Below are positions 1-14,903 of a stretch of DNA of 14,903 nucleotides, piece by piece (the stretch's first letter is position 1; each line of letters opens with the position of its first letter). The notes beneath the pieces are model-generated. The model was not told the DNA's origin and made no database searches. It was given only the letters and a program-made list of their open reading frames with translations. This DNA comes from a virus (Duplodnaviria > Heunggongvirae > Uroviricota > Caudoviricetes), in the IMG/VR virus record IMGVR_UViG_3300029068_000011, positions 1-14,903 of that record. The stretch is one strand, 5' to 3'. The position numbers were made by a program, and so were the translations under genes.

Positions 1-66
1 TGCCAGAAAGCGTGCGTATTGCCTGAAAATCCAGCCAGCTACAGGGTCGTTCGCACGAAATCTTAT

Positions 67-828
67 TTATTCAACAAAGCCAATTCCCTTCTCGAAATCC
101 ACATCCTCCCACGCCAGAGCTGCCAGTTCCCCGTGACGAAGCCCGGAGTAAACGGCAAATTTCCACAAGTTTTGGCTCTGTCCTTTTTCACTTTCCATTA
201 ATGCATTGAATTCTGTTTTAGATAACGGGTCAGGCTTTATTCTGTTTCGCTGTAATTTTTTTACTCCTTCAAATGGTTTGGTTGATATAAATCCCGACTG
301 ATACGCAAAACGTAACAGCGAACAGAGCAGGGCGATATAGTTATCAACTGTGCGCACGGTTCTTCCTTTTTTGTTGGATCTTGGATTATCCAGGTAAAGC
401 GTTTCTCCATGCAGCAGTTCATTCCGGTAGTTTAAGATATCGCTATAACGAATATATGATATCGGGGTACTTTCACAAATTATTATTCTGAGTGTTTTTA
501 ATTGTGATTTCGTTTTCTTCATTGTGTTTGTTGTTAACTCTGTCTCTTTAATTTTTGTCCAGATATCACAAAGCTCCCCGAACGTTTTTATGACTCTCGT
601 TGTCACCATTTTTGCCCCAGTGCTGGACTGGGGAAAACGTCTTAAATACTCAAATTCACCGGAGTTTATTTCATGAACTATCAGCGCTCTTAAATTTCCG
701 GCTTTTTTAATATTACTGTTTGTAATCTCCCAGCCTTTTAATGTTTCCCGACATCGTTTTCCTCGAAACATGAACCAGATGCGAATGTTTCTACCTCTAA
801 TCTCGACACCTGTTGGTAATTTAGACAT
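67..828 (-). CDS. intR: Phage tyrosine integrase, C-terminally truncated (253 aa; ends shortly after an LRHGELAALAWEDVD motif, so most of the catalytic domain is absent)
   Basis: ATG at 828 (minus), stop TAA at 67-69. The translation matches my memory of the Rac IntR N-terminus. Lambda-family integrases are about 350-410 aa; none of the three minus-strand frames across positions 1-66 continues an integrase-like sequence. Confidence 0.7.
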   Translation of the reverse strand: MSKLPTGVEIRGRNIRIWFMFRGKRCRETLKGWEITNSNIKKAGNLRALIVHEINSGEFEYLRRFPQSSTGAKMVTTRVIKTFGELCDIWTKIKETELTTNTMKKTKSQLKTLRIIICESTPISYIRYSDILNYRNELLHGETLYLDNPRSNKKGRTVRTVDNYIALLCSLLRFAYQSGFISTKPFEGVKKLQRNRIKPDPLSKTEFNALMESEKGQSQNLWKFAVYSGLRHGELAALAWEDVDFEKGIGFVE

Positions 829-829
829 A

Positions 830-1045
830 TCATGAGTCTTTGATAAACTGATTTATCTTTGGATAGTTGTACCAGATAATCCCTCGTTTGCTGTCTGGCT
901 TACCTAAAGGAGATACTCGTTTGAAGTGGAAGCCCTCCACCCAACAGTTCTGGCGGTATGCTTCAATTTGTCTGGCCCCCAGACCAGTGCGAAGCATCAG
1001 GCCGTATTCAACCATCCACTCTTCATTAAAGATTACTTGTGCCAT
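830..1045 (-). CDS. xisR: Excisionase-like protein (71 aa)
   Basis: ORF 830..1069; start placed at internal ATG 1045 ([10 protein letters not shown]...), preceded by an AGAGGTGA Shine-Dalgarno. Its stop TGA (830-832) lies 1 nt from the int ATG. Matches recalled YdaQ/XisR. Confidence 0.8.
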
Positions 1046-1096
1046 CGCATCACCTCTGGCAGGCGCCAATGTTAGACTGAAATTGACGCCTGATGT

Positions 1097-1112
1097 TGAT
1101 TATTAATAATCA
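1097..1112. repeat. 16-bp perfect palindrome tgattattaataatca in the ydaC-xisR intergenic region
   Basis: Seen directly, about 50 bp upstream of the xisR start codon. Confidence 0.5.
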
Positions 1113-1144
1113 GCTATGAAGTTTTAATTTGAATACAATGCAAT

Positions 1145-1333
1145 TCACGAGGACTGAAGTTTCTCGCAATTAAAATTTATCAGTTTTACTTTCTGCTCTC
1201 TGGAAACGCCTGCTTCTTTTTTACCTGAGAGCATTTTTTCGCATTCTGATTTCGTTAGTTTAGATTTTGAATATCTTGTCCAGTTAGTAGGAGTGCCACC
1301 TTCCTTTTCAATTGTAGCGGTAATTTTATACAT
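1145..1333 (-). CDS. ydaC: Small Rac prophage protein of unknown function
   Basis: ORF 1145..1405. Preferred start is ATG 1333 (MYKITATIEKEGG...) because it has a GGAGG Shine-Dalgarno 5 nt upstream; alternative starts at 1345 and 1405 lack one. Overlaps the ralR stop by 8 nt. Confidence 0.6.
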   Translation of the reverse strand: MYKITATIEKEGGTPTNWTRYSKSKLTKSECEKMLSGKKEAGVSREQKVKLINFNCEKLQSS

Positions 1334-1532
1334 GAACGCCTCCATTAATATTTTCAGTGGTTCGTTTATTCCATCTTTCGAGCGCTTCTTTTTCACTTCC
1401 ACCATAGCCAGTTCGGGATTCGCATCCGTTGCATTTTGCCCGGTAATATCCTGAAATGTCTTTCACCGTTACTGATGGACAACCACAAAACGGACATGGT
1501 TTAACATCGTCATATCTCAAAGTTTTTGTCAT
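1326..1532 (-). CDS. ralR: Restriction alleviation protein Lar/RalR (68 aa, Cys-rich; reported DNase toxin of a type I toxin-antitoxin pair)
   Basis: ORF 1326..1559; start at ATG 1532 (MTKTLRYDDVKPCPFCGC...), which matches recalled RalR. Contains CPFCGC and CNGC motifs. Confidence 0.85.
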   Translation of the reverse strand: MTKTLRYDDVKPCPFCGCPSVTVKDISGYYRAKCNGCESRTGYGGSEKEALERWNKRTTENINGGVHV

Positions 1533-1576
1533 AAAAACTATCTCACGTTGGCGGTGCATTACACCGCCAGGCTGGA

Positions 1577-2410
1577 TTATTCTTCTGGATTATCGATTAC
1601 ACTGTATTCCCCGGCTATAACCGATATGTCGTCTGGATTAATTGTTTCCACCTCTTTTCCATCCATCGATACTGCACGCTGGATTTCAATAGATACCGGC
1701 AGATACTTGAACAGTTTTCGTATCACTGTCTTTTTGGCCATGTCTTCAAAGTGTTCATCCCAGATGGACGACGCCCCTTTTGACGCTGCGTTTTTTGCCG
1801 CCTTGCTGTGTGTGTCGCGAACTTTTTCTACTTGTTTGCGGGTCATGACTTCAAACTGCACTCCTCCGTCTTTCAGTTTTGCAACAGCATAGACATGGGT
1901 TATAGGGGCATCTTCGTTTTCACCGGGACGATGAACCAGTTTTTCATCAAGGCCAAGTTCATAGCTGAATTCATCACATTCACGGACAACACGAGCTGAC
2001 AGACTGATGATTTGACCTGATCGACGGGCAAGGTCGATCATGCCGCGATAACCGATGATCAGCTGTACGTTCTTCTTACCGTTTTTTGCTTTTCCGTTGC
2101 CGAACGGTAGCAGATATGCATGACCGAGGGCGCTACCTGGCTCAAGTCCGAGCTGTGAACACTGTACGATGGCACCGATAAAACTCGTCGAGTCACAGTT
2201 TCTTAGTTCCGGTACTTTACGGATTTCTGTTGTAGCAATGCGGATCATGCGTTCCGCTGTCATGTGACGTGGCAGAGCTGCTGCCAGTTGCGCTTTCATT
2301 GCCGGGCTGTTAATCACGCACAGCACATCCTTATCGTTAACTGCTGCTGGTGCACGGTTTCCCTGAGTTTTTTGCAGATCGGCTTTTGCGATAGGTGGTT
2401 GCTTAGTCAT
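1577..2410 (-). CDS. recT: RecT single-strand annealing recombinase
   Basis: ORF 1577..2467; start at ATG 2410 ([24 protein letters not shown]...) with an AAGGAG Shine-Dalgarno 7 nt upstream. Overlaps the recE 3' end, as in the recET operon. Confidence 0.9.
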
Positions 2411-5003
2411 TTGCATACTCCTTAGCCCAGCGGGGCAGTGATAACGTCTTAATAGCTGGCCATTCATCGGTATTTAGGCAGTCAGCCAGGGTCCGCAGAT
2501 TGCGGTGATATTCCTGCTGGCCTGCCAGTTTTGCTTCTTCGCCCATCATGAAAATCTCAACCGGATAACGTCCGCATTCAACAGTTGTGCTGGCAACCAG
2601 AAAAACGAAAGTTGGCTGCACACCAAACTGTGCTTCATAACCGTCACTGTAGAATGCATCCTGAACGTGATAGCGGTAGTCGTAATAAGACGTTTTGAAT
2701 CGTTGAATATCCGCTGTGGTTTTCACGTCCATGATCCAGTGAAATTCAGGAATAATTTTGTCCGGACGGCACCGACACAAAATTCCTGTTTCCGGATCTT
2801 CCCAGTAAATTGATGATTCAGCGTGTCCGGCGCTTTCAACAAGTCATTGCCCCAGCGGCAAAGCCATAACGCTTTGATACATGAGTTCAATTTTCCGGCC
2901 TTCTTCCGCAGTGATAACCGTTTTTCCTGTGCTTGCGCATTCCATCAGAAACGCTTTCTCTTCTTCTTTTCCGGCGTTTGTACGGCGGTTAAATTCAGGT
3001 GCTACGATAAAGCGGTTACTAAATTCTTCCGGTTCAAGTACCCGGCAGTGGAAAGCGGTTCCTAAATCGAGCGTTTTTGTCTTTGTAGTGTCCACGGGGG
3101 CATTTTTACGCCACAAATACAGTGCCGGAGTATCAGCAATGTCATCGAGCTGAGACTTACTGACACCGGGACCCGCGTGGTAATTCTCATTCGAAATTCC
3201 GTAATAAATACCGGGCTCTATGTCTTCTACGATTACGGGATCTGCGACTTCGCCAGTTTCATCACTGCAATCGCGATGCGGATCGCTGCCAGCATTCTCA
3301 TTGTGCGGATGTTCAGCGCCTTCCATTTCCTCCGGATCTTTTTCCTTAGCTTCAACCTGATTCTCTTCACCGAATGTTTCCTGGTATGTTGCGTCGCCCA
3401 TCACCGCACCACAGTCAGGGCAGTTATCCCCGCCAGTCTGACCGCAGGCATTGCAGACTATTTCCTGTTCCTGTTGCACTACTGGCTCAGGTTGTTTCGC
3501 ATCCGGGCTGATTATTTCCGTTTCTGGCTGGTTCTGGTACACAGAATCGCGAGTCTGGATCCCCTTTACCCATTTCGGATCGTTCGGGTCGCTAATTCCG
3601 TCAACAAATTCACCACGTGATGCAGCAAGCAATTTATCGGCATCGACAGGATCTTTTGATGGAATGTTTTTTCGGGCTTCATGGAGTTCTGCCCGCAGTT
3701 TCTGATATTTCGCATCAACAGAATTTACCTGTGACTGAGCATCCAGCGGCTGCGTGTCCTGATGATGTTCAGTTGCGTCCGGTTCCATTGTTTCAGCCTC
3801 TCCCTGTTCAACTGCCGTTGTTCCAGATGGTTGCGGTTTTTCTTCATCATCCTGTTTTCCTTCTTCTGTTACTCGCTGCGGCATCGGGGCAGAGGAGCGA
3901 CCGCAGGCAATATCCACGATTTCCGGATCAGGGTTGGCATGATCGGTTTCAGTCAGTACTTTGTTCAGATATTCAGTGACGTGCGCGGGGATGACCTCGA
4001 TCCCAATTGGTGCTTCTTTTACGGACGCAACCACGATGGCGCGGGAATAATCCAGCCCGCCAGGCATGGTGATGAATTTGTCGCGGAAAACAGAAAAGGG
4101 CGGTTTATTTTCAGCGATAATTTCCTCAATGCGTTTAGCGTGTGCCGGATGAAGGTTATAGATGTCCAGATCCATTGAACGGGCCAGTACGCCAGTGGCT
4201 ACGTCGCGCGCCAGTGACGTCAGATCGTGTACGAAACCTTCGCCGCGATCGGTGAGGTTTCCGCCGCCAGCATTAGCACCGGAAGCCGTGCGAGTGATGT
4301 GTGAAACACGATTACCCTTCATCCACTCTTTTGTCAGCAGTCCTCGATCGGTGTAGTCAGCGTTCAGGTATGCTTCGAAAAAAGCAGTTATCAGTCCCAG
4401 GTTTGAATTACCAGGATTAGGGAAAACTTTGTCAGTGTCACGAACCAGTTTGTGGAGTTCGCGAATTTCCAGCGGGTCGAGCAGGCTGGTTTTGTGGGAA
4501 ACAGCCAGGGCAGTAACAGCCGGTAGTTCTTCAGCCCGAGCAATGTGTAATGCCTGGAGTCCGTCGCGTGAAACGTGCGTTACCGGTTTTTCGCTGCCGT
4601 GTTGAGCAAGCCAACGAATGGGCAGTTCCTGGCCAGAAATTGGGAGTAGCATATTCTCCTCAATCTCAGTCATGTCTTCGCCGTTGACGTTGGTATTGCC
4701 TTGATAGTGAGCGTTGTCTGGTGCTGCTCCCGGTTTTAGTTCCCATGTCATGGAGTCTTTGCTGAGTTGATAGCGTTCACTCCAGGTAAAATCGATCTCA
4801 CCTTCAGCGGGCAGGTCATTAACGACAGGAAAATTCGTGGCAACAGCTTTAAAATAGCTGCTCAGTTTTTTACCTGACTTAACGATCAGGTAGTCCAGAG
4901 TGGCACAGGTCGATTCAAAATCGTTGCTTGCCCACAGGACGACGTCAGGTTCACCGGATGATTTTTTCGCTTTCCGTAACAGGAAGAGTGGTTTTGTGCT
5001 CAT
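2403..5003 (-). pseudogene. recE: recE exonuclease VIII reading frame interrupted by one in-frame TGA at 2844-2846 (codon 720 of an otherwise continuous 866-codon frame)
   Basis: ORFs 2844..5003 (719 aa) and 2403..2780 (125 aa) are in the same frame, separated by 21 sense codons ([21 protein letters not shown]) and a single TGA. 719+1+21+125 = 866, the length I recall for intact RecE. GAGG Shine-Dalgarno upstream of ATG 5003. Confidence 0.85.
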
Positions 5004-5074
5004 TGTTTTTTAACCTCAACTCAGATTAAAATTCGTTTTGTTCAGTGAATGATCTTGCCGGATACACACTGTTC

Positions 5075-5099
5075 ATAGCCTGCGCCATACGCAGGCTAT
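5075..5099. other. Perfect 10-bp-stem hairpin (atagcctgcg / ccata / cgcaggctat) between racC and recE
   Basis: Read directly from the sequence. It is followed on the plus strand by TTCTTTC; on the minus (coding) strand no U-tract follows. Confidence 0.4.
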
Positions 5100-5104
5100 T
5101 TCTT

Positions 5105-5380
5105 TCAGATTTCACCTTTTAATTTCATTGCAATTAGAGTTGCCAGAAATTCGGCTTTTTTTTCTGCGGGCAGATTCTTTCCGATATGCACCAGGCACAT
5201 TTTTTTGACACCTTCATCAAGTGTTTTTACGTTGCCTGATGGACCATCGATATCAACCACAGTGAATGGGGTTTCTTTATTTTCTGTTTTAATTACGTAG
5301 CCAATGCGCTTTCCTTCCAGATTCACCTCGTGAACAATGTCATCGGTAGTTACAACAGTGGCTTTATAATTGGTAATCAT
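5105..5380 (-). CDS. racC: RacC (91 aa, unknown function)
   Basis: ORF 5105..5428; start at ATG 5380 (MITNYKATVVTTDD...) with a GGAG Shine-Dalgarno (ttaaggagaaaaac upstream). Confidence 0.8.
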   Translation of the reverse strand: MITNYKATVVTTDDIVHEVNLEGKRIGYVIKTENKETPFTVVDIDGPSGNVKTLDEGVKKMCLVHIGKNLPAEKKAEFLATLIAMKLKGEI

Positions 5381-5454
5381 GTTTTTCTCCTTAATTAAGG
5401 TTGAGCGAATACCTGCCATTTCTGGCATAAATTCAGTTTCGAATAGTCAATTAA

Positions 5455-5625
5455 TTAAAGTTCATGTGCCATCTGGTCTTTTTCGGCACAAGCTTCACTG
5501 CAATATTTTCTCGGTTCGTCTTTTGATAAAATCCCGTGCATGAAGTGAAGCATTCTTTCAATAGCTTTGCTTTCTTCAACGTCTTTTTTGCAAAGGTGGT
5601 AAGCACATTTTATTTTCTTAGTCAT
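5455..5625 (-). CDS. ydaE: Small Cys/His-rich putative zinc-binding protein (56 aa)
   Basis: Not in the supplied ORF track (under 60 aa). My translation: [56 protein letters not shown]. Its ATG overlaps the kilR stop (ATGA); GGAG Shine-Dalgarno upstream. Confidence 0.7.
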   Translation of the reverse strand: MTKKIKCAYHLCKKDVEESKAIERMLHFMHGILSKDEPRKYCSEACAEKDQMAHEL

Positions 5626-5846
5626 CACCATGACTCCGCCTTTACAGGTAAACCATCACGACCGAGGAAGGCTTTAATCATGCGGTCAGTAATGCATGTT
5701 TTTGTGGTCAGGTTACGAATATATAGTTTTCGCTTTTTAATATTGTTTGCCGAGGCAATATATGTCCGGCCTTCATGAAGAACATAATCGCCAGGAGTCA
5801 CACACTGACGTGGTATTTCATCAGTTCCGAAGTGATGTGCAATCAT
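5625..5846 (-). CDS. kilR: KilR cell-division inhibitor (73 aa)
   Basis: ORF 5625..5858; start at ATG 5846 ([14 protein letters not shown]...) with a GGAGA Shine-Dalgarno 5-6 nt upstream; the ATG at 5858 has none. Confidence 0.85.
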
Positions 5847-6020
5847 AATTATCTCCATTTTTACAAATGAACTTTGTTGATGCGGTGCCTGGTGCCTCCA
5901 GGTGACTGCAACCAGTTAACAATTACAGTCGGCTTTCCCACCCAAACCAATAAGGACTAACATGACTTTTAACTGTGCCACGTGCGCTTAGCCGCATTCA
6001 CCGCATCACAAAATTCACTT

Positions 6021-6069
6021 TAAAAAGGGCGGACATCAGCCGAACTTCAAGAAAAAAACTGATGCCGCC
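6021..6069 (-). terminator. Candidate intrinsic terminator for leftward transcription upstream of kilR-ydaE-racC-recET (tL-like)
   Basis: On the minus strand: GGCGGCAUCAG, a 19-nt loop, CUGAUGUCCGCC (11 bp with one bulge, GC-rich base), immediately followed by CUUUUUAAAG. The long loop lowers confidence. Confidence 0.35.
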
Positions 6070-6287
6070 AGGACTACACACAGCAATGTCGTTATTTACA
6101 ACCGGAGGCGCACTCCCACCATTTAAATTTAACAGACAAGACCGACTCTTTATGGATATCGGAAATGCGCCTTCGTGTTGTGCCCGGTTTTATTTCACCA
6201 CCTCCGGGCTTCGGTGGTCTCGGCTATACCCCTACAGCGAGAGCTTGTGTTAACATTTCAATACCCTTACAGTTGAGAGTTATTGAT

Positions 6288-6776
6288 ATGTTGGATGTAT
6301 TTACTCCATTGTTGAAACTTTTTGCTAACGAGCCACTCGAAAGACTTATGTATACGATTATCATTTTTGGTCTCACTCTCTGGCTGATACCGAAAGAGTT
6401 TACTGTCGCATTCAATGCTTATACTGAAATACCTTGGCTCTTTCAGATTATCGTTTTTGCCTTTTCTTTCGTGGTCGCCATTTCCTTCTCAAGATTGCGA
6501 GCACATATTCAAAAGCATTATTCATTACTACCAGAGCAACGAGTATTGCTTCGTTTATCTGAGAAAGAAATCGCTGTATTTAAAGATTTCCTTAAAACAG
6601 GAAATCTTATTATCACTTCTCCTTGCCGTAACCCGGTTATGAAAAAATTAGAACGGAAGGGCATCATTCAACATCAGAGTGATAGCGCAAACTGTTCTTA
6701 TTATCTCGTCACCGAAAAATACTCCCATTTTATGAAGTTATTCTGGAACAGCAGGAGTAGACGTTTTAATCGTTAG
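6288..6776 (+). CDS. sieB: Superinfection exclusion protein B (162 aa, membrane protein)
   Basis: ORF 6165..6776; start at ATG 6288 (MLDVFTPLLKLF...) with a GAGAG Shine-Dalgarno about 8 nt upstream. Hydrophobic N-terminal half. Matches recalled SieB. Confidence 0.85.
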   Translation: MLDVFTPLLKLFANEPLERLMYTIIIFGLTLWLIPKEFTVAFNAYTEIPWLFQIIVFAFSFVVAISFSRLRAHIQKHYSLLPEQRVLLRLSEKEIAVFKDFLKTGNLIITSPCRNPVMKKLERKGIIQHQSDSANCSYYLVTEKYSHFMKLFWNSRSRRFNR

Positions 6777-6928
6777 CTTACTGTGTGCTTCTCCAACCAT
6801 CGGCGCGCACCAGTTTCGGTTTTAAATGTTTTGCTTTTGGTATACGTCATGGCAGTGAACGTTCCATCCTGGTTGGGGAACACGCCGCACACCAGGGATT
6901 CGTTGTTGCCGAGGTCGATTTTTTGCAT
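6773..6928 (-). CDS. ydaF: Small Rac prophage protein (51 aa)
   Basis: My translation from ATG 6928: MQKIDLGNNESLVCGVFPNQDGTFTAMTYTKSKTFKTETGARRWLEKHTVS. Its stop (6773-6775) overlaps the sieB stop (6774-6776) on the opposite strand. Confidence 0.65.
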   Translation of the reverse strand: MQKIDLGNNESLVCGVFPNQDGTFTAMTYTKSKTFKTETGARRWLEKHTVS

Positions 6929-6938
6929 TTTGCGAATC

Positions 6939-7073
6939 TCACATCTTGTTGCTACGTATAGCGACTTCTGCCTGCCAGAGATCCCAGTCGTTGCTGCGTA
7001 AAGCCTGCACAGCCTGGTTGTAAGTGATACCGCAACAATCCATCAAATACTGAACTACTTCGTAATGCACCAT
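6939..7073 (-). CDS. ydaG: Small Rac prophage protein (44 aa)
   Basis: My translation from ATG 7073: MVHYEVVQYLMDCCGITYNQAVQALRSNDWDLWQAEVAIRSNKM. AAGGGGA Shine-Dalgarno 8 nt upstream. Confidence 0.65.
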   Translation of the reverse strand: MVHYEVVQYLMDCCGITYNQAVQALRSNDWDLWQAEVAIRSNKM

Positions 7074-7242
7074 CTTATCTATCCCCTTAACGCCGGGTGG
7101 CGGAACTAACTGCTGCACTGCAAAATTTGAATCCCGCCGTCATGTTCATACGCCTCGGGCTGGCTACTTAACCCCTGACCACTGCCTGGTAACTCGAAGT
7201 ATTGCCTGGCGTTCTGTGGGGCGGGGTGGGTGGTATGCTGGA

Positions 7243-7271
7243 ACTATAGGTAATGCCTAATTGATTGTCAA
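7243..7271 (-). promoter_or_regulatory. Leftward sigma70 promoter (pL-like): -35 TTGACA (7266-7271), 17-nt spacer, -10 TATAGT (7243-7248)
   Basis: Hexamers read directly on the minus strand. Operator-like GCCTAAT repeats overlap the spacer and abut the -35. Confidence 0.5.
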
Positions 7272-7308
7272 TAGGCTATGCCTAATGTTTTAAGCGTAAC
7301 CTAATAGG
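7246..7308. promoter_or_regulatory. Left operator cluster: ataggtaatgcctaat (7246-7261), ataggctatgcctaat (7271-7286), cctaatagg (7300-7308)
   Basis: Seen directly. The 16-mer at 7271-7286 is the exact reverse complement of attaggcatagcctat at 7911-7926 on the other side of racR. Confidence 0.5.
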
Positions 7309-7381
7309 TGATGGCGACTGGAGAAAGTGATGGGGGGGTTAAATAACGGAATCCAGGAGTTTTCCGTCAGACCATATAAGT

Positions 7382-7858
7382 TTAAGTTCCAGTTTTTGTG
7401 ATGTTCTGGCTTTTCCGTTCAGATTCTAGAGCTTTCAGATACTTACCCACTTTCATTTCCATCGCTGCTATGTAGGCGCGAACATCGTGGTCAACCCAAT
7501 CTGGTTCTGTAGCATTTCCAGATAACAGGAAAGCTACAATCGCTCTTATTTCATCAGAGGCTGCTTGATAAAGGTTGTTTATATCTAAAAGTTCACTTTT
7601 TGTATCTGGATTGGTGGGGGTTGGTATGGGGTATTCGTTAAGCCCCCAATGCTCTGGACCAACAACATCAGCAAAGAAACGCCATAATTCTGGAAGTTTA
7701 TCTTTACTTATGGAGCCTTTCTTAATCCAGTCATAGATTGATGGTGGTTGGACTTTGAAGTGGCGTGCGACCTCCGCCTTTGATTTGACGGATCCCGATG
7801 CGATTTTTTTGTTAATGGCCTGCTCTATCGCTCGGCCTAAGTCTTTACCACTAAGCAT
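7382..7858 (-). CDS. racR: Rac prophage repressor (cI-like, 158 aa)
   Basis: ORF 7382..7858 with an AGGAGA Shine-Dalgarno upstream; divergent from the cro-like ydaS. Matches recalled RacR. Confidence 0.9.
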   Translation of the reverse strand: MLSGKDLGRAIEQAINKKIASGSVKSKAEVARHFKVQPPSIYDWIKKGSISKDKLPELWRFFADVVGPEHWGLNEYPIPTPTNPDTKSELLDINNLYQAASDEIRAIVAFLLSGNATEPDWVDHDVRAYIAAMEMKVGKYLKALESERKSQNITKTGT

Positions 7859-7885
7859 TGCTTAATATTCTCCTATGCTCATTGC

Positions 7886-7953
7886 ATTAGGCAATCCCTA
7901 CTCTCATTGTATTAGGCATAGCCTATTGACATTTGTATTAGGCGTCGCCTAAT
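7886..7953. promoter_or_regulatory. Right operator cluster: attaggcaat (7886-7895), attaggcatagcctat (7911-7926), 17-bp perfect palindrome attaggcgtcgcctaat (7937-7953)
   Basis: Seen directly in the racR-ydaS divergent intergenic region. The sites overlap the -35, spacer and -10 of the rightward promoter. Confidence 0.55.
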
Positions 7954-7955
7954 AT
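7926..7955 (+). promoter_or_regulatory. Rightward sigma70 promoter (pR-like): -35 TTGACA (7926-7931), 18-nt spacer, -10 TAATAT (7950-7955)
   Basis: Hexamers read directly. ydaS GGAG Shine-Dalgarno at 7970-7973, ATG at 7982. Confidence 0.55.
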
Positions 7956-7981
7956 CTCTGTGTGTTTTTGGAGTTCATTCG

Positions 7982-8278
7982 ATGAAAAAAGAGAACTATT
8001 CATTCAAGCAAGCTTGTGCTGTTGTCGGTGGGCAAACAGCAATGGCTAGGCTTTTAGGTGTATCACCTCCAAGCGTAAATCAATGGATCAAAGGGGTACG
8101 TCAATTGCCTGCCGAGAGATGTCCAGCAATTGAACGTGCAACAAGAGGTGAGGTGCTGTGCGAAGAACTTCGTCCTGATATTGACTGGTCATATTTACGA
8201 CGTTCGGCATGTTGTTCGCAGAATATGTCAGTGAAGCAACTAAATGACAGTAACAAATCCTCATTTGATCATACCTGA
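7982..8278 (+). CDS. ydaS: Cro-like HTH DNA-binding protein (98 aa)
   Basis: ORF 7982..8278. The N-terminus QACAVVGGQTAMARLLGVSPPSVNQW is a typical helix-turn-helix. Matches recalled YdaS. Confidence 0.85.
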   Translation: MKKENYSFKQACAVVGGQTAMARLLGVSPPSVNQWIKGVRQLPAERCPAIERATRGEVLCEELRPDIDWSYLRRSACCSQNMSVKQLNDSNKSSFDHT

Positions 8279-8300
8279 AACATCAAGAGGCAAATGATTC

Positions 8301-8723
8301 ATGAAAATCAAGCATGAGCACATCGAATCGGTGTTGTTTGCCCTGGCAGCCGAAAAAGGGCAGGCATGGGTAGCCAATGCAATTACTGAAGAATATCTGC
8401 GCCAGGGGGGCGGCGAATTGCCCCTGGTTCCAGGCAAGGACTGGAACAATCAGCAGAATATCTATCACCGTTGGTTGAAAGGTGAAACGAATGCGCAAAG
8501 GGAAAAAATTCAGAAGCTGATCCCAGCAATTCTGGCAATCCTTCCGCGCGAGCTGCGTCACCGACTCTGCATCTTCGATACCCTGGAACGCCGTGCATTA
8601 CTGGCGGCGCAGGAAGCGTTAAGTACGGCAATTGATGCGCATGATGATGCAGTCCAAGCCGTTTACCGGAAAGCGCATTTCAGCGGCGGCGGTTCTCCTA
8701 GCGATTCTGTCGTAGTGCATTGA
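8301..8723 (+). CDS. ydaT: YdaT (140 aa; reported toxic on overexpression, RacR-controlled)
   Basis: ORF 8301..8723, 22 nt downstream of the ydaS stop, with an AGAGG Shine-Dalgarno. Confidence 0.85.
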   Translation: MKIKHEHIESVLFALAAEKGQAWVANAITEEYLRQGGGELPLVPGKDWNNQQNIYHRWLKGETNAQREKIQKLIPAILAILPRELRHRLCIFDTLERRALLAAQEALSTAIDAHDDAVQAVYRKAHFSGGGSPSDSVVVH

Positions 8724-8736
8724 TTGAAATTAATCG

Positions 8737-8758
8737 TACCGAACTGTTTTGTTCGGTA
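8737..8758 (+). other. Perfect 8-bp hairpin (taccgaac / tgtttt / gttcggta) immediately after the ydaT stop
   Basis: Seen directly. The downstream sequence (tctgttaaatg) is only moderately U-rich, so it is a weak terminator or attenuator candidate. Confidence 0.3.
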
Positions 8759-8767
8759 TCTGTTAAA

Positions 8768-8788
8768 TGTAACGCTGCGAGCGTTACA
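8768..8788. repeat. 21-bp perfect dyad tgtaacgct-gcg-agcgttaca, abutting the ydaU ribosome-binding site
   Basis: Seen directly. First of three related dyads (see 8960 and 9168). Confidence 0.6.
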
Positions 8789-8800
8789 AGGTGAAAACAA

Positions 8801-9589
8801 ATGGCTTCAAACTGGATAAAGCTCGAAGTTATTACGCCGGATAAGCCGGAAATATTCAGGCTTGCTGAGATTCTGAATATTGATCCAGATGCCGCATTAG
8901 GGAAAGTCATTCGCTTCTGGGCATGGGCGGATCAACAAATGATAGACGGTAACGCAGAGTGTAACGCTCGCGGCGTTACAAAAAGTGCAATAGATCGCAT
9001 CACTTTTATGGCTGGTTTTGCTGATGCGTTAATTCAGGTTGGATGGCTGGTCGAAACTAATGGTGTGTTGTCGCTTCCTAACTTTGAGCGCCATAACGGG
9101 AAAAGCTCTAAAAAACGGGCGGTTACAAACGAGAGAGTAACAAAAATACGAGAACTGAAACGAAAAGGTAACGCTGCCAGCGTTACAAAAACGGATCAAA
9201 AAGCGTTACCAGAGGAAGAGAAAGAGGAAGATATAAATACTTATCTCCCCCTAAATCCCCCTCGCCAAAAACGAGCGTCTAAAAAATTCGAACCGGAGGC
9301 TATCGAGCTGCCTGACTGGTTGCCGGAAACACTCTGGCATGAGTGGGTTCAGTTCAGGCAGGCATTGCGAAAACCGATTCGAACGGAGCAGGGCGCTAAC
9401 GGGGCGATACGGGAGCTGGAAAAATTCCGCCAGCAGGGTTTTTCACCTGAGCAGGTGATTCGACACAGCATCGCCAACGAATACCAGGGCTTGTTCGCGC
9501 CGAAAGGTGTTCGACCTGAGACGTTACTCCGACAGGTTAACACCGTCTCGTTACCGGATAGTGCGATCCCGCCAGGCTTCAGGGGGTAA
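8801..9589 (+). CDS. ydaU: Putative replication initiation protein (lambda O analogue, 262 aa)
   Basis: ORF 8801..9589 (in-frame TGA 9 nt upstream of the ATG). It sits immediately upstream of the DnaC-like ydaV and contains DNA dyad repeats in its coding sequence. Function inferred from synteny. Confidence 0.75.
   Translation: MASNWIKLEVITPDKPEIFRLAEILNIDPDAALGKVIRFWAWADQQMIDGNAECNARGVTKSAIDRITFMAGFADALIQVGWLVETNGVLSLPNFERHNGKSSKKRAVTNERVTKIRELKRKGNAASVTKTDQKALPEEEKEEDINTYLPLNPPRQKRASKKFEPEAIELPDWLPETLWHEWVQFRQALRKPIRTEQGANGAIRELEKFRQQGFSPEQVIRHSIANEYQGLFAPKGVRPETLLRQVNTVSLPDSAIPPGFRG
8960..8980. repeat. Dyad tgtaacgc-tcgcg-gcgttaca inside ydaU
   Basis: Seen directly; 8-bp perfect arms. A ggtaacgc half-site lies at 8948-8955. 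Confidence 0.6.
9168..9186. repeat. Dyad gtaacgctg-c-cagcgttac inside ydaU
   Basis: Seen directly; 9-bp perfect arms. Additional GTTACAAA(A) half-sites at about 9122, 9137 and 9202. Confidence 0.6.
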
Positions 9590-9595
9590 CTGACC

Positions 9596-10342
9596 ATGAA
9601 AAATATTGCGACAGGCGACGTTCTTGAACGTATCCGCAGACTGGCCCCGTCACATGTAACCGCGCCATTCAAGACGGTAGCGGAGTGGCGCGAGTGGCAA
9701 CTTTCCGAAGGCCAGAAACGTTGTGAGGAGATCAACCGTCAGAATCGTCAGTTGCGGGTGGAAAAAATTCTGAATCGCTCTGGCATCCAGCCATTGCACC
9801 GCAAATGCTCGTTTTCGAATTACCAGGTGCAGAACGAAGGGCAGCGATACGCGTTGAGTCAGGCGAAATCCATCGCTGATGAACTGATGACCGGGTGTAC
9901 AAATTTTGCGTTCAGCGGAAAACCTGGTACCGGGAAGAATCACTTAGCGGCAGCTATCGGGAATCGCCTGCTGAAAGACGGTCAGACAGTGATTGTGGTT
10001 ACCGTGGCTGATGTTATGAGTGCCCTCCACGCCAGCTATGACGACGGGCAGTCAGGCGAAAAATTTTTGCGGGAACTGTGCGAAGTGGATCTGCTGGTTC
10101 TTGATGAAATTGGCATTCAGCGCGAGACGAAAAACGAGCAGGTGGTACTGCACCAGATTATTGATCGACGGACAGCGTCGATGCGTAGCGTGGGAATGCT
10201 GACAAACCTGAACTATGAGGCCATGAAAACATTGCTCGGCGAGCGGATTATGGATCGCATGACCATGAACGGCGGGCGATGGGTGAATTTTAACTGGGAG
10301 AGCTGGCGTCCGAATGTCGTCCAGCCAGGAATTGCGAAGTAA
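9596..10342 (+). CDS. ydaV: DnaC/IstB-like AAA+ helicase-loader ATPase (lambda P functional analogue, 248 aa)
   Basis: ORF 9596..10342. Walker [16 protein letters not shown] and Walker B LLVLDEIG are visible in the translation. Confidence 0.9.
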
Positions 10343-10364
10343 TTTTTACCGGGAGAAAAATTTA

Positions 10365-11126
10365 ATGGAGACTGTTTTTGACGCACTGAAAGCAATGGGG
10401 AAAGCTACGTCGGTAGAACTGGCTGCGCGACTTGATATCAGTCGTGAAGAAGTGCTGAACGAGCTGTGGGAACTGAAAAAGGCTGGCTTCGTTGATAAAA
10501 GCGTATACACCTGGCGCGTGGCTGATAACAACGTTCAGCAGGAACAGCCAGAGCAGGCAGAACTGCCGGAAGAAACCACCACGGCAACAGTCGCAAAAAT
10601 TTCGGAGTGCGATTTAACTGCGACGATTGAACAACGTGGCCCACAAACGGCGGATGAACTGGCTACGTTTTTCGGCATCACATCACGCAAAGTGGCTTCA
10701 ACGCTGGCAATGGCAATCAGTAAAGGTCGTCTGATTCGCGTTAATCAGAACGGTAAATTTCGTTACTGCATGCCGGGCGATAATTTACCAGCAGAGCCGA
10801 AAGCTGCATCGGTAGCGGAAACTGATGGTAAAGCCTTTCCTCAGCCAGCCGGTGTTGCGTTACCAGTACAGGAAGCGGCAACACAGGAAGATATTAAAAC
10901 AGAAACTGTGGCGGACATTGTGCAGTCGCTGCCATCGTTTACTGAAACGCAAGCGGATGACCTGGTTTTACCATCGCTGCATATGGCAAACCGCGAACTG
11001 CGTCGGGCGAAAAATCATGTCCAGAAGTGGGAGCGAGTCTGCGCCGCGCTGCGGGAGCTGAACAAGCACCGGGATATTGTCCGACAGATTGTCGATTCCT
11101 CCAGTCGTATTGTGTCGGAAAAGTGA
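10365..11126 (+). CDS. ydaW: Putative DNA-binding prophage protein, apparently full length (253 aa)
   Basis: ORF 10314..11126; start placed at ATG 10365 ([12 protein letters not shown]...) because a GGGAGA Shine-Dalgarno lies 8 nt upstream and 10314 is inside ydaV. Two winged-helix-like segments ([19 protein letters not shown] and [20 protein letters not shown]). The gene symbol is a tentative recall. Confidence 0.65.
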
Positions 11127-11141
11127 TTGCCGGAGGCGCTT

Positions 11142-11564
11142 ATGGCAAAAGTTTTTACACAGGAAGAGCGGGAAAAAATTAAAGGGCAGGTTGTTGAGCT
11201 AGTACGCCGGAGTGGACGCTAGACGTTACGGCAACTGGAAGTCAAGACAGGTGCGACAAGATATCTGATGAGCGTTCTCGCAAGAGAGCTGGTTGCCAGC
11301 GGCGATGTATACAACTCTGGTTACGGGTTATTCCCGTCTGAACAGGCGCGTAAGGACTGGCAAAATGCCCGTAAAAAGCTCTCAAGGGCAAAGCTGAAGA
11401 AACCATCTGCGGTTGATCCGGACCTTATCTGGTCATTACCTGACGGAGAAATACGTCGCTACGACAGGCGTCAGAACATAATCTGTCGCGAGTGCCGGAA
11501 GAGTGAAGTTATGCAGCGCATATTGTCGTTTTATCAGGGTGATGTTCGGTATTTATTGAAGTGA
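11142..11564 (+). pseudogene. Ren-like gene (lambda ren family) interrupted by an in-frame TAG at 11220-11222
   Basis: ATG 11142 with a GGAGG Shine-Dalgarno 5 nt upstream gives MAKVFTQEEREKIKGQVVELVRRSGR, then TAG, continuing in the same frame to 11564. The C-terminus ICRECRKSEVMQRILSFY resembles the lambda Ren C-terminus as I recall it (...KECRQSAAMKRVLAVY...). The position immediately after the replication genes agrees. Confidence 0.5.
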
Positions 11565-11710
11565 CGAGATTAAAGTGCATTAGTTCAGATGCAAATTGAC
11601 ATTTTGTGGCACAGGGTAGAGCTAGCGTGGTTGTCCGCTTTGTGCCAACAGCGGACATTATAGATGGTATATGTAGAAAGTGAACATGCGTAGATTGTAT
11701 GATTTAGCCG

Positions 11711-12520
11711 TCACTTAATTATTGGATAACTCACACAAGTATGACCGTTGCTTATCGCATACATTTGGTTTCCCTTAAGATTTACAAATGGAAATGTCGT
11801 ATACTCATAATTTATAGAGGTCATATTAAATGTAAGGAATTTATCTTCAAGTTCTAATTTTGTAGAGTGGGCAGGGTATGTTCCTTCATTTTTCATTGTG
11901 ATAATAAAACCGATAGGAAAAAAATGTAAAGCACAAATAAATGCCACATGTCCTTCGTTCATAAATGCTACACTTTGAGCGGATATGTGCATTCTGTGTG
12001 GGTAAAACCAGTAGTAAATATCATGAGTTTCCTCAAAACTTGAATTTTTACCCAAAACATAATCCTTTAAAGGTGTATAGAAGGGGCTATCTACGGGTTC
12101 TTTTTTACAATCTTCAACTGAAGTTGCTGATAGCACGTGCCCAATCATAGCCTTAGTGAAAGATATGCTATCAAAAGGTATTCTAATGAATGGATATACA
12201 TTCATACCATTCATATATCGACTTAACTGTTCTTTAAAGGACTTTGTTACATTTTCAATTGCAACATCGAGCCCACCTAATACCTTATTGTTACAGTGGC
12301 TGCAAATGGTTCTGAAATAAGAGCCATTTTTAGCATTTAATGGTTTAACTGGTTCCTGAATACCAAAAAATTCGCTAACTGTTTTCTGCAAAACAGGGCC
12401 TAAGGTTATGGCGCACTTTGGAGGAACATGATCTTTTGTGAGCAAGCCATATTTCCCACAAATATTGCAATAACCTTCAGTAATGCCATTGTGCTTCCAT
12501 CGTTCACTAATTTTCGTCAT
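11711..12520 (-). CDS. Cargo protein with an N-terminal HNH-nuclease-like zinc-knuckle motif and a roughly 180-aa C-terminal region of unknown function (269 aa)
   Basis: ORF 11711..12520 with a GAGGGA Shine-Dalgarno 7 nt upstream. Motif C18-x2-C21 ... D30-H31-V-P-P ... N ... C73-S-H-C76-N-N-K fits the HNH pattern CxxC...DH..P...N...CxxC(H/N)..K. Lies in an AT-rich segment. Confidence 0.6.
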   Translation of the reverse strand: MTKISERWKHNGITEGYCNICGKYGLLTKDHVPPKCAITLGPVLQKTVSEFFGIQEPVKPLNAKNGSYFRTICSHCNNKVLGGLDVAIENVTKSFKEQLSRYMNGMNVYPFIRIPFDSISFTKAMIGHVLSATSVEDCKKEPVDSPFYTPLKDYVLGKNSSFEETHDIYYWFYPHRMHISAQSVAFMNEGHVAFICALHFFPIGFIITMKNEGTYPAHSTKLELEDKFLTFNMTSINYEYTTFPFVNLKGNQMYAISNGHTCVSYPIIK

Positions 12521-12843
12521 TTTTATTCCCTCAGTAGCATAAGCTATCTATACGTTTTTTAATCCTATCAAAGATACAACTTAACGTCAGGAAAATGATA
12601 GTGTTTATCTAAGTAATACAATTAACTTCAACGCGTGACAGTCTGCTTTTCGCTCAAAGCGGACTAGAAGGTTAGCTTGCGTCGGACTTGGCGTATTTAA
12701 AGAAGTGCTGGTGGTGACTGGTTGTTGTGTTCCATTTCTACAGAATAAAATCACAGAAACTATACCCAATAGTTGTATTGAATCACTGACGAGACAGCCT
12801 CATATTTATCAGGACTGGTGTGCGTCTAATACAGGGGGTTGTC

Positions 12844-12933
12844 GTGCTGGTTCTCAAATGTGCGCTGGCTATTGCGGCTGTAATGGCAATTTATTGTCTT
12901 GCTGTTGTTCTTATGGAGCGGCTTTCTGATTGA
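12844..12933 (+). CDS. Candidate small hydrophobic peptide (29 aa: M/V-LVLKCALAIAAVMAIYCLAVVLMERLSD)
   Basis: GTG 12844 preceded by AGGGGG (12833-12838, 5-nt spacing). Codons are G-first-position rich (GCG, CTG, GCT, GTT). It is in a different frame from the 74-aa Cys-rich ORF in the track. Terminator about 155 nt downstream. Not confirmed. Confidence 0.3.
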   Translation: MLVLKCALAIAAVMAIYCLAVVLMERLSD

Positions 12934-13089
12934 TTACATACTGGCTAGAAAAAAGGTGTTACCTTGGTTTATCTTTGTCCGGCAAGGTGCGCTCATTAAT
13001 CTTAAGTAAATTTATTGCTCAAGTATTCAGATTACTTCTTATGGTTGAAGTCTCCTGTCAATGTAGAACCAATATATTTACAAAAATGA

Positions 13090-13117
13090 GACCCGTCGGG
13101 GATAGCCCTGCCGGGTC
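13090..13117. terminator. Bidirectional intrinsic terminator (stem gacccgtcgggg / loop atag / ccctgccgggtc)
   Basis: About 10 of 12 stem pairs. On the minus strand it is followed by TCATTTTTGT, 30 nt after the DUF1971 gene stop; on the plus strand it is preceded by an A-tract and followed by tgactgtt. Confidence 0.55.
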
Positions 13118-13147
13118 TGACTGTTAAAGCATTTTTAATATGATCAT

Positions 13148-13486
13148 CTATTTTTTGGTGCTATAGACTTTTTCGCCCGAGAAGTCTGGAGCGACCCAAA
13201 AGTTAATATTAAACAGAGCATCATCGCTTAGTTCAACACGGTGCCAGTATTGTGGTGGGCTTGTTGCAAAAGCGCCAGCATTAATGACTACTTTTATCTC
13301 CGGTTCAGTAGCATTCTCATCAGTAAAACCATAATATGTTACAGTGCCTTCCATTACGCACAACTGCCCAAAAACACCTGCTGCTGTATTATGATGTGTT
13401 AATAACGCTGAAGGTACGTTCTCTTTTGTGAAGAACGGAGTTGAGCGTTTGATTACCCAATCTTTAGGAATTCTCTTGTGTGTCAT
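13148..13486 (-). CDS. DUF1971-family protein (YeaR / TehB N-terminal-like, 112 aa)
   Basis: ORF 13148..13510; start at ATG 13486 (MTHKRIPKDW...) because a perfect GAGGAGG Shine-Dalgarno lies 5 nt upstream. The pattern RSTPF...THHNTAAGVFGQL...G.V.YYGF...EP......AG.FA..PPQYWH.....DD..FNI.FWV resembles YeaR-type proteins as I recall them. Confidence 0.65.
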   Translation of the reverse strand: MTHKRIPKDWVIKRSTPFFTKENVPSALLTHHNTAAGVFGQLCVMEGTVTYYGFTDENATEPEIKVVINAGAFATSPPQYWHRVELSDDALFNINFWVAPDFSGEKVYSTKK

Positions 13487-13508
13487 AACCACCTCCTCAA
13501 AAACATGC

Positions 13509-13541
13509 ATTATAAATGCGTGTTTTTGAGGGTTATGTCAA
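13509..13541 (-). promoter_or_regulatory. Candidate promoter for the DUF1971 gene: -35 TTGACA (13536-13541) with -10 ATTTAT (18-nt spacer) or a perfect TATAAT (13509-13514, 21-nt spacer)
   Basis: Hexamers read on the minus strand. The spacing is non-ideal for the perfect -10, hence low confidence. Confidence 0.3.
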
Positions 13542-14299
13542 GCTGTTATGAAACACATAATTGATATGTTGATTAGAGGAGAAGATATAATAAATATGGT
13601 TGTTTTTCGTATAACTATTTGTTTTACTTTTAGTTTATGCATTCTGTGTGTTAGGAATAAGTTATTAAAGTTTAATCAAAAAATCTCGATGTAGTCTACA
13701 TAGATTATTGTTACTGAACCTTATTGTGTGTATTAGTTGTGTTCTGAAATTTCAGCTTAATTATTTATGATGTATTTTTTAACGATAAATATTTTCCCAG
13801 GATACCTTTACTGTGTATATAAATAAATTATATACACATAAATAATGTAAAGGCGTCCTTTTAGATATATCTTATCAAATGTTAATGACTTGAGTGGGAA
13901 ATATGATTCCAGCAACTTATCATGTGGCTACTTTATAAAAATAATGCCCATATAAAACAACAAGCGAAAAGGATTACGGATAAAAAAGGAGCGAGATGTG
14001 CGAACTTGTTATTTTCCATGTTTAACCACCTTAAATAATTGATGATGACGGGATGATTGCATCTGTAATGCTTTTATTGAAATGTTATGATAAAAAAGAA
14101 CTTTTGCATAACATTAAAATGTAATTTATCTAATCGTTTTTAATAATAAATGTCGTATTTCTATCCTTGTACCAGCTATTTGATATGTAGTGTTTGTTCA
14201 TGCTATGTGGGGCTTTACACCATAGCCAGTTTATTTATACTTTATTCGTCAGCCTGAACAACTGGCATCTGCTGCGCTGCGTCATCGAGAGATTGAGAA

Positions 14300-14860
14300 A
14301 TGGCGCATATACAACTGGTCAAACAAACCTCTTCTGGTTTACTTCTCCCGGCGACGCCGGAGAGTTGCGATTTTTTGCATCAAATCAAAATAGGTGAGTG
14401 GATACACGCAGACTTTAAGCGTGTGCGTAACTACGCATTCCACAAGCGTTTTTTCAAACTCCTGCAACTGGGATTCGATTACTGGACTCCGGTCGGTGGG
14501 GCGATCACGCCTCGCGAACGAAAACTGGTATCGGGCTTCGTTGATTACTTGTGCGAATCAGTAGGTCGGGAACACACTCCAGCCCTGAGTGATGCCGCAG
14601 AGCAATACCTTAATACCGTTGCGACATGCAGAACCCGGGATACGGCATTGCTAAAGTCGTTTGACGCTTTCCGCGAGTGGGTAACCATTCAGGCAGGATT
14701 TTACACCGAGTATATTTATCCTGATGGTAGTCGTGGGCGCAGGGCAAAATCTATCGCATTTGCGAACATGGACGAAACCGAGTTTCAGCAGGTTTATAAA
14801 TCTGTACTGAATGTGCTGTGGAACTGTGATCCTACCCACGTAATATGGACACAGGCCTAA
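14300..14860 (+). CDS. Conserved phage hypothetical protein (186 aa), probably a nin-region-type gene
   Basis: ORF 14300..14860 with a coding-like composition that contrasts with the upstream AT-rich spacer. Weak Shine-Dalgarno (gagag). No recognisable motif. Confidence 0.55.
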   Translation: MAHIQLVKQTSSGLLLPATPESCDFLHQIKIGEWIHADFKRVRNYAFHKRFFKLLQLGFDYWTPVGGAITPRERKLVSGFVDYLCESVGREHTPALSDAAEQYLNTVATCRTRDTALLKSFDAFREWVTIQAGFYTEYIYPDGSRGRRAKSIAFANMDETEFQQVYKSVLNVLWNCDPTHVIWTQA

Positions 14861-14903
14861 GCGAGGTTCTTGTTTTCAAATTGTTCCGGACTGAGGCCGC
14901 CAC

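Follow-up and report, generated by a model that had tools for sequence, protein, structure and literature searches.

A small open reading frame (ORF) on the plus strand, at positions 12844–12933 of a 14,903-nt stretch of viral DNA (IMG/VR record IMGVR_UViG_3300029068_000011, Caudoviricetes, positions 1–14,903; hereafter, the window), was compared with its relatives, and the pattern of substitutions indicates that it is a genuine protein-coding gene under purifying selection, with its Shine-Dalgarno (SD) sequence, start and stop kept. It is regarded as protein-coding because of an excess of third-position changes, low ratios of non-synonymous to synonymous substitution (dN/dS) and the lack of frame-breaking insertions or deletions (indels). 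The window is a Rac-like lambdoid prophage. Within such prophages the small gene occupies the early-right (nin) region, where it normally borders the hok/sok module on its left side and runs in the direction of hok. The product is rather probably a 29-residue single-pass inner-membrane peptide with a short polar tail, a member of an uncharacterised family of Escherichia/Shigella lambda-like prophages and of the virulence plasmids of Shigella and enteroinvasive Escherichia coli (EIEC), which would be expressed in the lysogen as an accessory protein and not as an RNA-silenced toxin. This account draws on coding constraint, a hydrophobic helix, synteny, distribution and the translation of a homologue in uninduced cells. 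The gene is real, conserved and almost never annotated.

Identification of the small gene

The gene and the elements ahead of it are the following.

12778–12806, plus strand: promoter-like motif, with −35 TTGAAT (12778–12783), a 17-nt spacer and −10 CATATT (12801–12806)
12833–12838, plus strand: SD sequence AGGGGG, separated from the GTG by the 5-nt spacer TTGTC; AGGAGG or GGGAGG in most relatives
12844–12933, plus strand: small protein gene, GTG start, 29 codons, TGA; product MLVLKCALAIAAVMAIYCLAVVLMERLSD, one predicted transmembrane helix

Read directly, the ORF has a GTG start (12844–12846), 29 sense codons and a TGA stop (12931–12933), and its translation is (M)LVLKCALAIAAVMAIYCLAVVLMERLSD. 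An earlier reading of the window made from the letters alone (the sequence-only reading) had proposed this hydrophobic 29-codon peptide with a charged C-terminus, preceded at 5 nt by an AGGGGG SD sequence; the translation was as stated, the SD sequence was exact, and a single transmembrane helix was predicted. The best 19-residue Kyte-Doolittle mean was 2.70, the top value for the 194 six-frame ORFs of 25 aa or longer in the window, and shuffled windows held a mean of 0.04 ORFs this hydrophobic (50 shuffles). The summed Hessa-scale value of the best 19-mer was −2.9 kcal/mol. G-first codons accounted for 13 of the 29.

The program-made ORF list had begun the frame at an upstream GTG (12820..12933, 37 aa). 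This GTG is GTA in most alleles and is frame-shifted in the Shigella plasmid copy; the start was therefore placed at 12844, since the upstream codon is not kept in relatives. Public gene callers give varied N-terminal extensions in this region, and the final 29 residues are common to all of them. The start codon is ATG in the copy on the Shigella plasmid pINV. The SD core GGAGG was retained in all alleles, with variable adjacent bases in the untranslated region (UTR).

Selection on the reading frame

An unbiased sample was obtained by gathering viral contigs with a single criterion, the hok mRNA's conserved 5′ end, and inspecting the upstream DNA, which gave 118 usable loci. The 29-aa form found in the window (type a) was present in 45 of these and intact in all 45. 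Together with hits of a DNA search, the ORF-bearing loci provided 26 distinct DNA alleles, among which the ORF contained no internal indel or stop, although the flanks do carry indels; one allele (L181) is a codon shorter with the frame preserved. Distinct changes fell on codon positions 1, 2 and 3 in the numbers 11, 6 and 20, and 20 of the 37 were synonymous and 17 non-synonymous, where chance would give 26% synonymous (binomial p=2e-4). The replacements were conservative (A/T/V, I/V, D/E/N, L/F, S/T and R/H). In the two other frames, the excess of changes fell on positions 1 or 2.

Pairwise Nei-Gojobori estimates against more diverged copies were as follows.

Window and Shigella plasmid (pINV) copy: dN/dS 0.12, dS 0.86
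Window and P0049 locus (a variant from the profile search described below): dN/dS 0.22, dS 0.98
Window and type c (the 34-aa form described below): dN/dS 0.28, dS 1.6

Shifted frames gave higher ratios, mostly >1. The sequence-only reading had noted that this alternative frame looked more coding than an overlapping 74-aa Cys-rich frame (12705–12929), and had named synonymous changes favoured in the peptide frame as the relevant check; the substitution pattern, the dN/dS values and the freedom from indels bear out both. Among relatives, the upstream part of the Cys-rich frame carries 1-nt and 14-nt indels and substitutions do not favour its third positions, and on these two grounds that frame was rejected as coding.

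In an alignment of the most divergent DNA-level matches, the SD sequence, the start, the ORF and the TTGAAT-17-CATATT motif stayed fixed while the upstream DNA was swapped for unrelated sequence. The core layout is thus TTGAAx, about 17 bases, CATATT; about 25 variable bases; GGAGG; 5–6 bases; GTG (ATG in one lineage); and 29 codons.

Related peptides and translation of a homologue

The family comprises the 29-aa type a of the window, variants of 29–30 aa and a 34-aa type c, which surfaced in the hok-anchored sample and has the sequence MSDD(I/L)SLAMEGALAVI(A/S)VVGVYCLVVFLMDR(L/M)GN. Types a and c are identical at 15 of 28 positions (54%) without gaps (pairwise BLASTP, E 5e-10), and P0036 is intermediate between them. 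When a profile of both types was run against 1.84 billion representative proteins, 26 matches with E up to 0.001 were returned, and all those inspected were type a or c-like, including the variants MLAALKGFVAILAVVAIYCLVVVLMDRLSD (P0049) and MLIIKGVLAIVIVVAIYCLVVTLWERLSD (P0051). In its lambdoid prophage, the P0049 gene follows those for lambda-P, DUF977, Ead/Ea22 and ORF6N and is directly upstream of a HOK_GEF (Hok/Gef) gene; it lacks the promoter motif, and most of its synonymous sites differ from those of the window. In the column table, V13, Y17, L19 and L23 were invariant and L8, A9 and C18 nearly so. The family signature is a V..YCL...L core with a (D/E)(R/H)L(S/G)(D/N) end, which the window peptide fits.

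The type c sequence forms the C-terminal part of XECs145, a novel small gene that was found by RNA-seq and ribosome profiling of enterohaemorrhagic E. coli (EHEC) Sakai, classed as ‘real’ and predicted to encode an inner-membrane protein with 1 transmembrane helix (Huecker et al. 2017, PMC5597208). RefSeq lists it in the Sakai genome under ECs_5710, a hypothetical protein of 34 aa whose gene is found in prophage Sp6, upstream of a mok/hok gene. Sequence similarity thus places the window peptide in an uncharacterised, unnamed family whose sole catalogued member is ECs_5710/XECs145. The scored XECs145 ORF (162 nt) also overlaps the 3′ end of a neighbouring ORF (type b, below), so the published values, given as reads per kilobase per million (RPKM) and ribosome coverage value (RCV), are not specific to type c:

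XECs145, LB: RNA RPKM 79.1; ribosome RPKM 346.1; RCV 4.35; coverage 0.99 (PMC5597208 S2 Table)
XECs145, brain-heart infusion (BHI): RNA RPKM 121.3; ribosome RPKM 150.1; RCV 1.14; coverage 0.84 (PMC5597208)
XECs145, BHI stress: RNA RPKM 73.3; ribosome RPKM 1.1; RCV 0.01; coverage 0.37 (PMC5597208)

The type a peptide was not found in the supplements of the same paper.

Occurrence in genomes, phages and plasmids

A 271-bp query around the ORF matched 1950 of 5426 complete E. coli genomes (~36%), with up to 4 copies each, and the conserved block spans 12690–12948 (259 bp). Most alleles were 90–100% identical, and among the matches listed for complete E. coli genomes the matched region carried no annotated feature. 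The block was also present in 258 IMG/VR contigs, in 4 cultured phages (Tritos, Evi, mEp460 and HannyBb) and in 143 plasmids, 135 of them within the 60–80% identity band; the plasmids among the matches listed were Shigella/EIEC virulence plasmids with one ATG-start variant. Matches to at least 80% of 12530–13150, which represents the hok-less arrangement of the window, were found in 300 genomes. A scan of GTDB species representatives, made with two peptide patterns only, gave Shigella, E. ruysiae and three gut metagenome-assembled genomes labelled Collinsella, Scatousia and Haemophilus, which are taken to be E. coli contamination; with that reading, the scan returned no relatives outside Escherichia/Shigella.

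A protein database search with concatenated variants returned only Escherichia ‘hypothetical’ calls. In exact look-ups, a few GenBank submitters use ‘putative membrane protein’ (e.g., CDU35968.1) with no function given, and the pINV variant corresponds to UniRef A0A0M1UIT1, likewise with no function attached. Pfam, NCBIfam, PHROGs and PADLOC gave no meaningful match for types a, b and c, and a full-text literature search with the peptide strings found no paper. The gene is thus in ~36% of complete E. coli genomes, frequently as multiple copies, and in the Shigella/EIEC virulence plasmids sampled, yet RefSeq is blank in the rows examined. Small membrane peptides of prophages are a known blind spot, and even if this one proved inert in all assays, the result would be an annotation correction. 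Those that have been characterised act in lysis or superinfection exclusion or are toxins. Natural controls are available: some alleles have hok and others lack it, the promoter motif is likewise present in some and absent from others, and there is the plasmid copy.

Upstream motif

Type a genes have their own conserved promoter-like motif, SD sequence and GTG or ATG start, whereas the other forms follow upstream early genes by 35–50 nt. Neither the −35's TTG nor any of the six bases of CATATT varied across the 26 alleles, while the spacer and flanks did so at most positions; among 85 further type a loci, 72 contained the motif. We infer from this conservation that TTGAAT-17-CATATT works as a promoter. 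Transcription is predicted to start near 12812, with a predicted 5′ UTR of ~30 nt.

In 12 of the 85 viral type a loci (e.g., with GTATCTCATCAATGATGAGA), TTGAAT is replaced, and as a result the promoter region is spanned by TCTCATCA-A-TGATGAGA, an inverted repeat of 8 bp. The non-coding stretch upstream of the motif (12640–12770) is common to Tritos, mEp460 and L009 despite their differing leftward genes, and mEp460 has a 14-nt deletion in the matching stretch. A hairpin at 12640–12665 with a 9-bp stem is not kept by relatives.

Arrangement with hok

In phage Tritos, the stop of the small ORF is followed after 7 nt by the hok promoter, TTGGCG-17-TAGAAT; the Rfam sok/hok element begins at locus position 1787, 42 nt after the stop, and hokD lies ~200 nt past the conserved block. 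The same layout of ORF and hok was found in other relatives, and among the 85 further type a viral loci, 64 continued into hok and 21 were hok-less like the window. At the spot ahead of hok, the 118 hok-anchored loci had type a in ~45, type c in ~5 and type b in ~25, so that ~75 carried one of the three. Type b is an unrelated 27-aa hydrophobic ORF, MTWPEAFTTVGIAMAVALVVYSICRWG, whose start shares an ATGA with the stop of the gene before it, and which either ends at the pre-hok −35 spot of type a or precedes a or c in tandem. In Sakai it reads MIWPEAFAITGVAIAIDFLVYVICRWG (L218 2345–2428, unannotated), and another copy is at about L215 1360–1448; no family matched type b, apart from a weak match to the KdpF model.

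In the window, homology to relatives stops inside the former hok promoter:

12934–12948, plus strand: what is left of the hok/sok module's left edge; CTGGCT (12941–12946) is the counterpart of the relatives' hok −35 TTGGCG

In nearly all matches, homology ends near 12948. Rfam scans found no sok match in the window, where hok/sok has been replaced by ~150 nt, a hairpin and then an oppositely oriented DUF1971 gene, with the small gene kept. The Shigella/EIEC virulence plasmid has an intact ATG-start copy with the promoter motif, the hok promoter and ~65 nt of the hok leader before the break (L005 1226–1470; L216 2501–2587, pWR501 220153–220239). The icsP start codon is ~290 nt past the small ORF stop, in the ospZ-icsP intergenic region, and transcription from the plasmid’s small-gene and hok promoters would run towards icsP. 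The locus also matters for studies of hok/sok regulation, because transcription of the small gene would enter the hok promoter and leader.

Assessment of explanations

On the account we favour, the small gene would be expressed from its own promoter in the lysogen, and the peptide would insert in the inner membrane as a single helix, where it may act through contact between helices, its partner being either a second copy or a larger membrane protein; it would be a small accessory membrane protein that is tolerated when made at native levels, and presumably not an RNA-silenced toxin. Several observations weigh against this account. The promoter-like motif agrees with the sigma-70 consensus at 8/12 positions, for which reason the promoter scan did not list it, and 12 of the 85 further type a loci have a different −35. 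Conservation along the helix has no significant helical periodicity (p=0.39) and thus does not point to one conserved face of interaction. The ribosome-profiling support concerns the type c homologue only, through an ORF shared with the end of type b. Close alleles differ chiefly by conservative in-helix replacements, and type a compared with HannyBb gave a dN/dS of 1.55 with 8 changes. Lastly, many harmless-looking small membrane peptides are toxic when induced.

The sequence-only reading had suggested that the peptide could belong with the type I toxins or serve the island as an effector partner. As the toxin of a new type I pair, it would depolarise or permeabilise the inner membrane and be restrained by an antisense or trans-acting small RNA (sRNA). 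The peptide suits that class in its size, in having one hydrophobic helix and in its charged C-terminal tail (at 29 aa, a hydrophobic protein of <60 aa with a predicted transmembrane helix), and in most relatives the gene adjoins a bona fide type I system, hok/sok. However, the gene merely follows early-operon genes in several relatives, its ~30-nt UTR is short, no toxin family matched, and a permissive Rfam scan of 12500–13180 gave nothing credible. The check that had been suggested, a promoter for an antisense sRNA on the opposite strand, yielded no sigma-70-like minus-strand site and no cognate antisense or divergent sRNA gene in cis at 12450–13250; a trans-acting sRNA might be encoded elsewhere. 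Tritos-type alleles, those with TTTTAT after the stop, do have a minus-strand site, TTAACT-18-TAAAAT (9/12; L003 1744–1773), placed back-to-back with the promoter of hok, which it overlaps, and directed into the ORF's 3′ end. However, about half of the alleles have G instead of the key A at position 2 of this −10 (TGAAAT); the −35 of the site falls in hok promoter DNA missing from the window, which lacks the site; and no terminator was found for the RNA that the site would produce. The minimum free energy fold of the window pairs the SD sequence with CUUUCU at the 3′ end of the ORF, yet the putative transcript folds no better than shuffles (z-scores −0.61 and −0.87), and covariation lends the pairing no support (RNAalifold on 13 diverse alleles, 1 of 38 pairs compensatory). 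The long structured leader and SD-hiding fold of a translationally inert mRNA were thus not found, and the homologue was highly translated in growing cells (LB RCV 4.35), unlike a silenced toxin. The regulatory hallmarks of type I systems were thus not found, and with antisense promoter, inert mRNA structure and toxin family absent and the homologue translated, the proposal is unsupported; we consider it unlikely.

A functional companionship with Hok is a further explanation, to which we give a low probability: together with type b, the peptide would tune Hok, by aiding induced lysis or by damping leaky Hok, and the window copy would be an orphan left after hok loss. The end of the ORF is fixed 7 nt before the hok −35 in hok-anchored loci, ~75 of the 118 hok loci have a small hydrophobic ORF (a, b or c) there, sometimes two in tandem, hok follows in 64 of the 85 type a loci, and hokW-sokW aids lysis and phage release after induction (PMC8621323). 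Such adjacency is nevertheless expected for neighbouring modules in tightly packed mosaic phages, and the ORF is intact without a hok gene in a quarter of type a loci, in 300 genomes and in the Shigella/EIEC plasmids sampled. A broader speculation, which seems to us similarly doubtful, is that type a, type b and Hok form an unrecognised peptide cluster at the nin/hok border that acts together (e.g., as a modulator or second toxin timing Hok-assisted lysis or abortive infection), or that type a is a trans-controlled type I-like toxin; in that case, the orphan copies, both those of hok-less prophages and the one ahead of icsP, would benefit the lysogen through a membrane role of their own. It is very improbable, finally, that there is no functional gene and that the sequence is conserved through recent spread of the module or as cis-acting DNA upstream of the hok promoter, with an incidental frame. 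The 90–100% identity of most alleles would suit this, as would the persistence of the 3′ 25–30 nt of the ORF and TTTCATATTGGCGAGG in some loci with a replaced 5′ part and the unusually invariant synonymous sites in ATG GCA ATT TAT TGT CTT. Against it, the excess at third positions and the low dN/dS persist at saturating dS in comparisons with diverged copies, whose DNA is different at most synonymous sites, the SD sequence, start and stop are kept, indels occur in the flanks only with the length change of L181 in frame, the ORF is retained where hok is absent, and the homologue is translated.

The Pas sRNAs (bioRxiv 10.64898/2026.05.13.724894), which lie beside holin/lysis genes and have terminators, were also considered and set aside, as they are not at the small-gene locus.

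Other features of the window

Upstream of the small gene, Pfam identified YdaS, YdaT, an IstB/DnaC-like ATPase, DUF1627 and DUF977 on the plus strand; the plus strand was taken as the early-right operon direction because these genes, from YdaS to DUF977, are all on it. Downstream, a DUF1971 gene on the minus strand is followed by DUF1367. Between the small gene and DUF1971 stands the following element.

13090–13117, no strand assigned: G+C-rich hairpin, GACCCG..CGGGTC; terminator of DUF1971, with a T-run at 13080–13089 on the minus strand

The sequence-only reading had described it as a bidirectional terminator; the hairpin is there, but its T-run is on the minus strand. The promoter/terminator scan did not list 13090–13117 as a plus-strand terminator, and for the transcript of the small gene the hairpin is possibly, at best, a weak one.

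The 269-aa minus-strand ORF at 11711–12520, transcribed divergently from the small gene, had been called an HNH gene, a designation that found no Pfam match at E up to 0.001. It has CxxC...DH and CxxC motifs near the N-terminus and is a ‘hypothetical protein’ in RefSeq. When the whole window was scanned at the Rfam gathering threshold, the sole match was RalA (1149–1327), which belongs to a RalR/RalA type I toxin-antitoxin locus at 1145–1405, where RalA (plus strand, 218 bits) lies opposite an 86-aa minus-strand ORF.

A second hydrophobic small ORF, MENNKFAHLAPFLSVILFACCFIWALFL (28 aa), was noted on the minus strand at 13933–14019, with the SD sequence AAGGTGG 7 nt ahead of its ATG. It is unannotated and lies in an AT-rich spacer upstream of the DUF1367 gene. 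A 76%-identical relative, MENNKSAHYAPFLSVILFVFCCVWAVFL (L219), keeps the SD sequence, ATG, stop and frame without indels, with indels in the flanks, and a diverged form is present in ~366 genomes.

Comparison with known systems

The type I toxins Hok/Gef, TisB, Ldr, Ibs, ShoB, DinQ and ZorO resemble the small peptide in being of <60 aa with one hydrophobic helix and a polar or charged C-terminus, in residing on mobile DNA and in being missed by annotation pipelines (Fozo et al. 2010, PMC2887945). They have no sequence relationship to it, and in contrast to their loci, no antisense RNA gene, long structured leader or tandem duplication of the locus was found for the small gene. The hok/sok(mok) modules of lambdoid prophages (hokD, hokW) likewise encode a small membrane peptide and are same-strand neighbours in about three-quarters of type a loci. 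However, the small gene has its own ORF, which stops short of the hok promoter and lies outside the Rfam sok/hok element, and the hok module is absent in the window. The peptide also lacks the PF01848 match of Hok/Gef (~50 aa, with a conserved Cys in the periplasmic tail): neither Pfam nor NCBIfam gave one at E up to 10.

MgtS, KdpF, AcrZ and CydX are single-pass proteins of 25–50 aa that are expressed in growth and are proposed to bind a larger membrane protein, as the small peptide may do; they have no homology to it and are encoded in the core genome, whereas the small gene is prophage-encoded. The closest counterpart, ECs_5710/XECs145, differs in its length of 34 aa, in its acidic N-terminus (MSDDISLAMEG), in following the 27-aa type b ORF by ~35 nt without a TTGAAT-17-CATATT motif, and in a 22-bp palindrome between the ORF and the hok promoter. 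This palindrome, CGATATGGGAATTCCCATATCG, is perfect or near-perfect at L218 2577–2598, at L215 1597–1618 and at several viral loci; it lies between the type c stop and the hok promoter, and is also found in hok loci without type c. As no T-run follows it, a protein-binding site is a likelier reading than a terminator. In common with the window gene, ECs_5710/XECs145 encodes one helix with the invariant V..YCL...L core and an MDRL(S/G)(D/N) tail and lies directly upstream of the hok/mok promoter.

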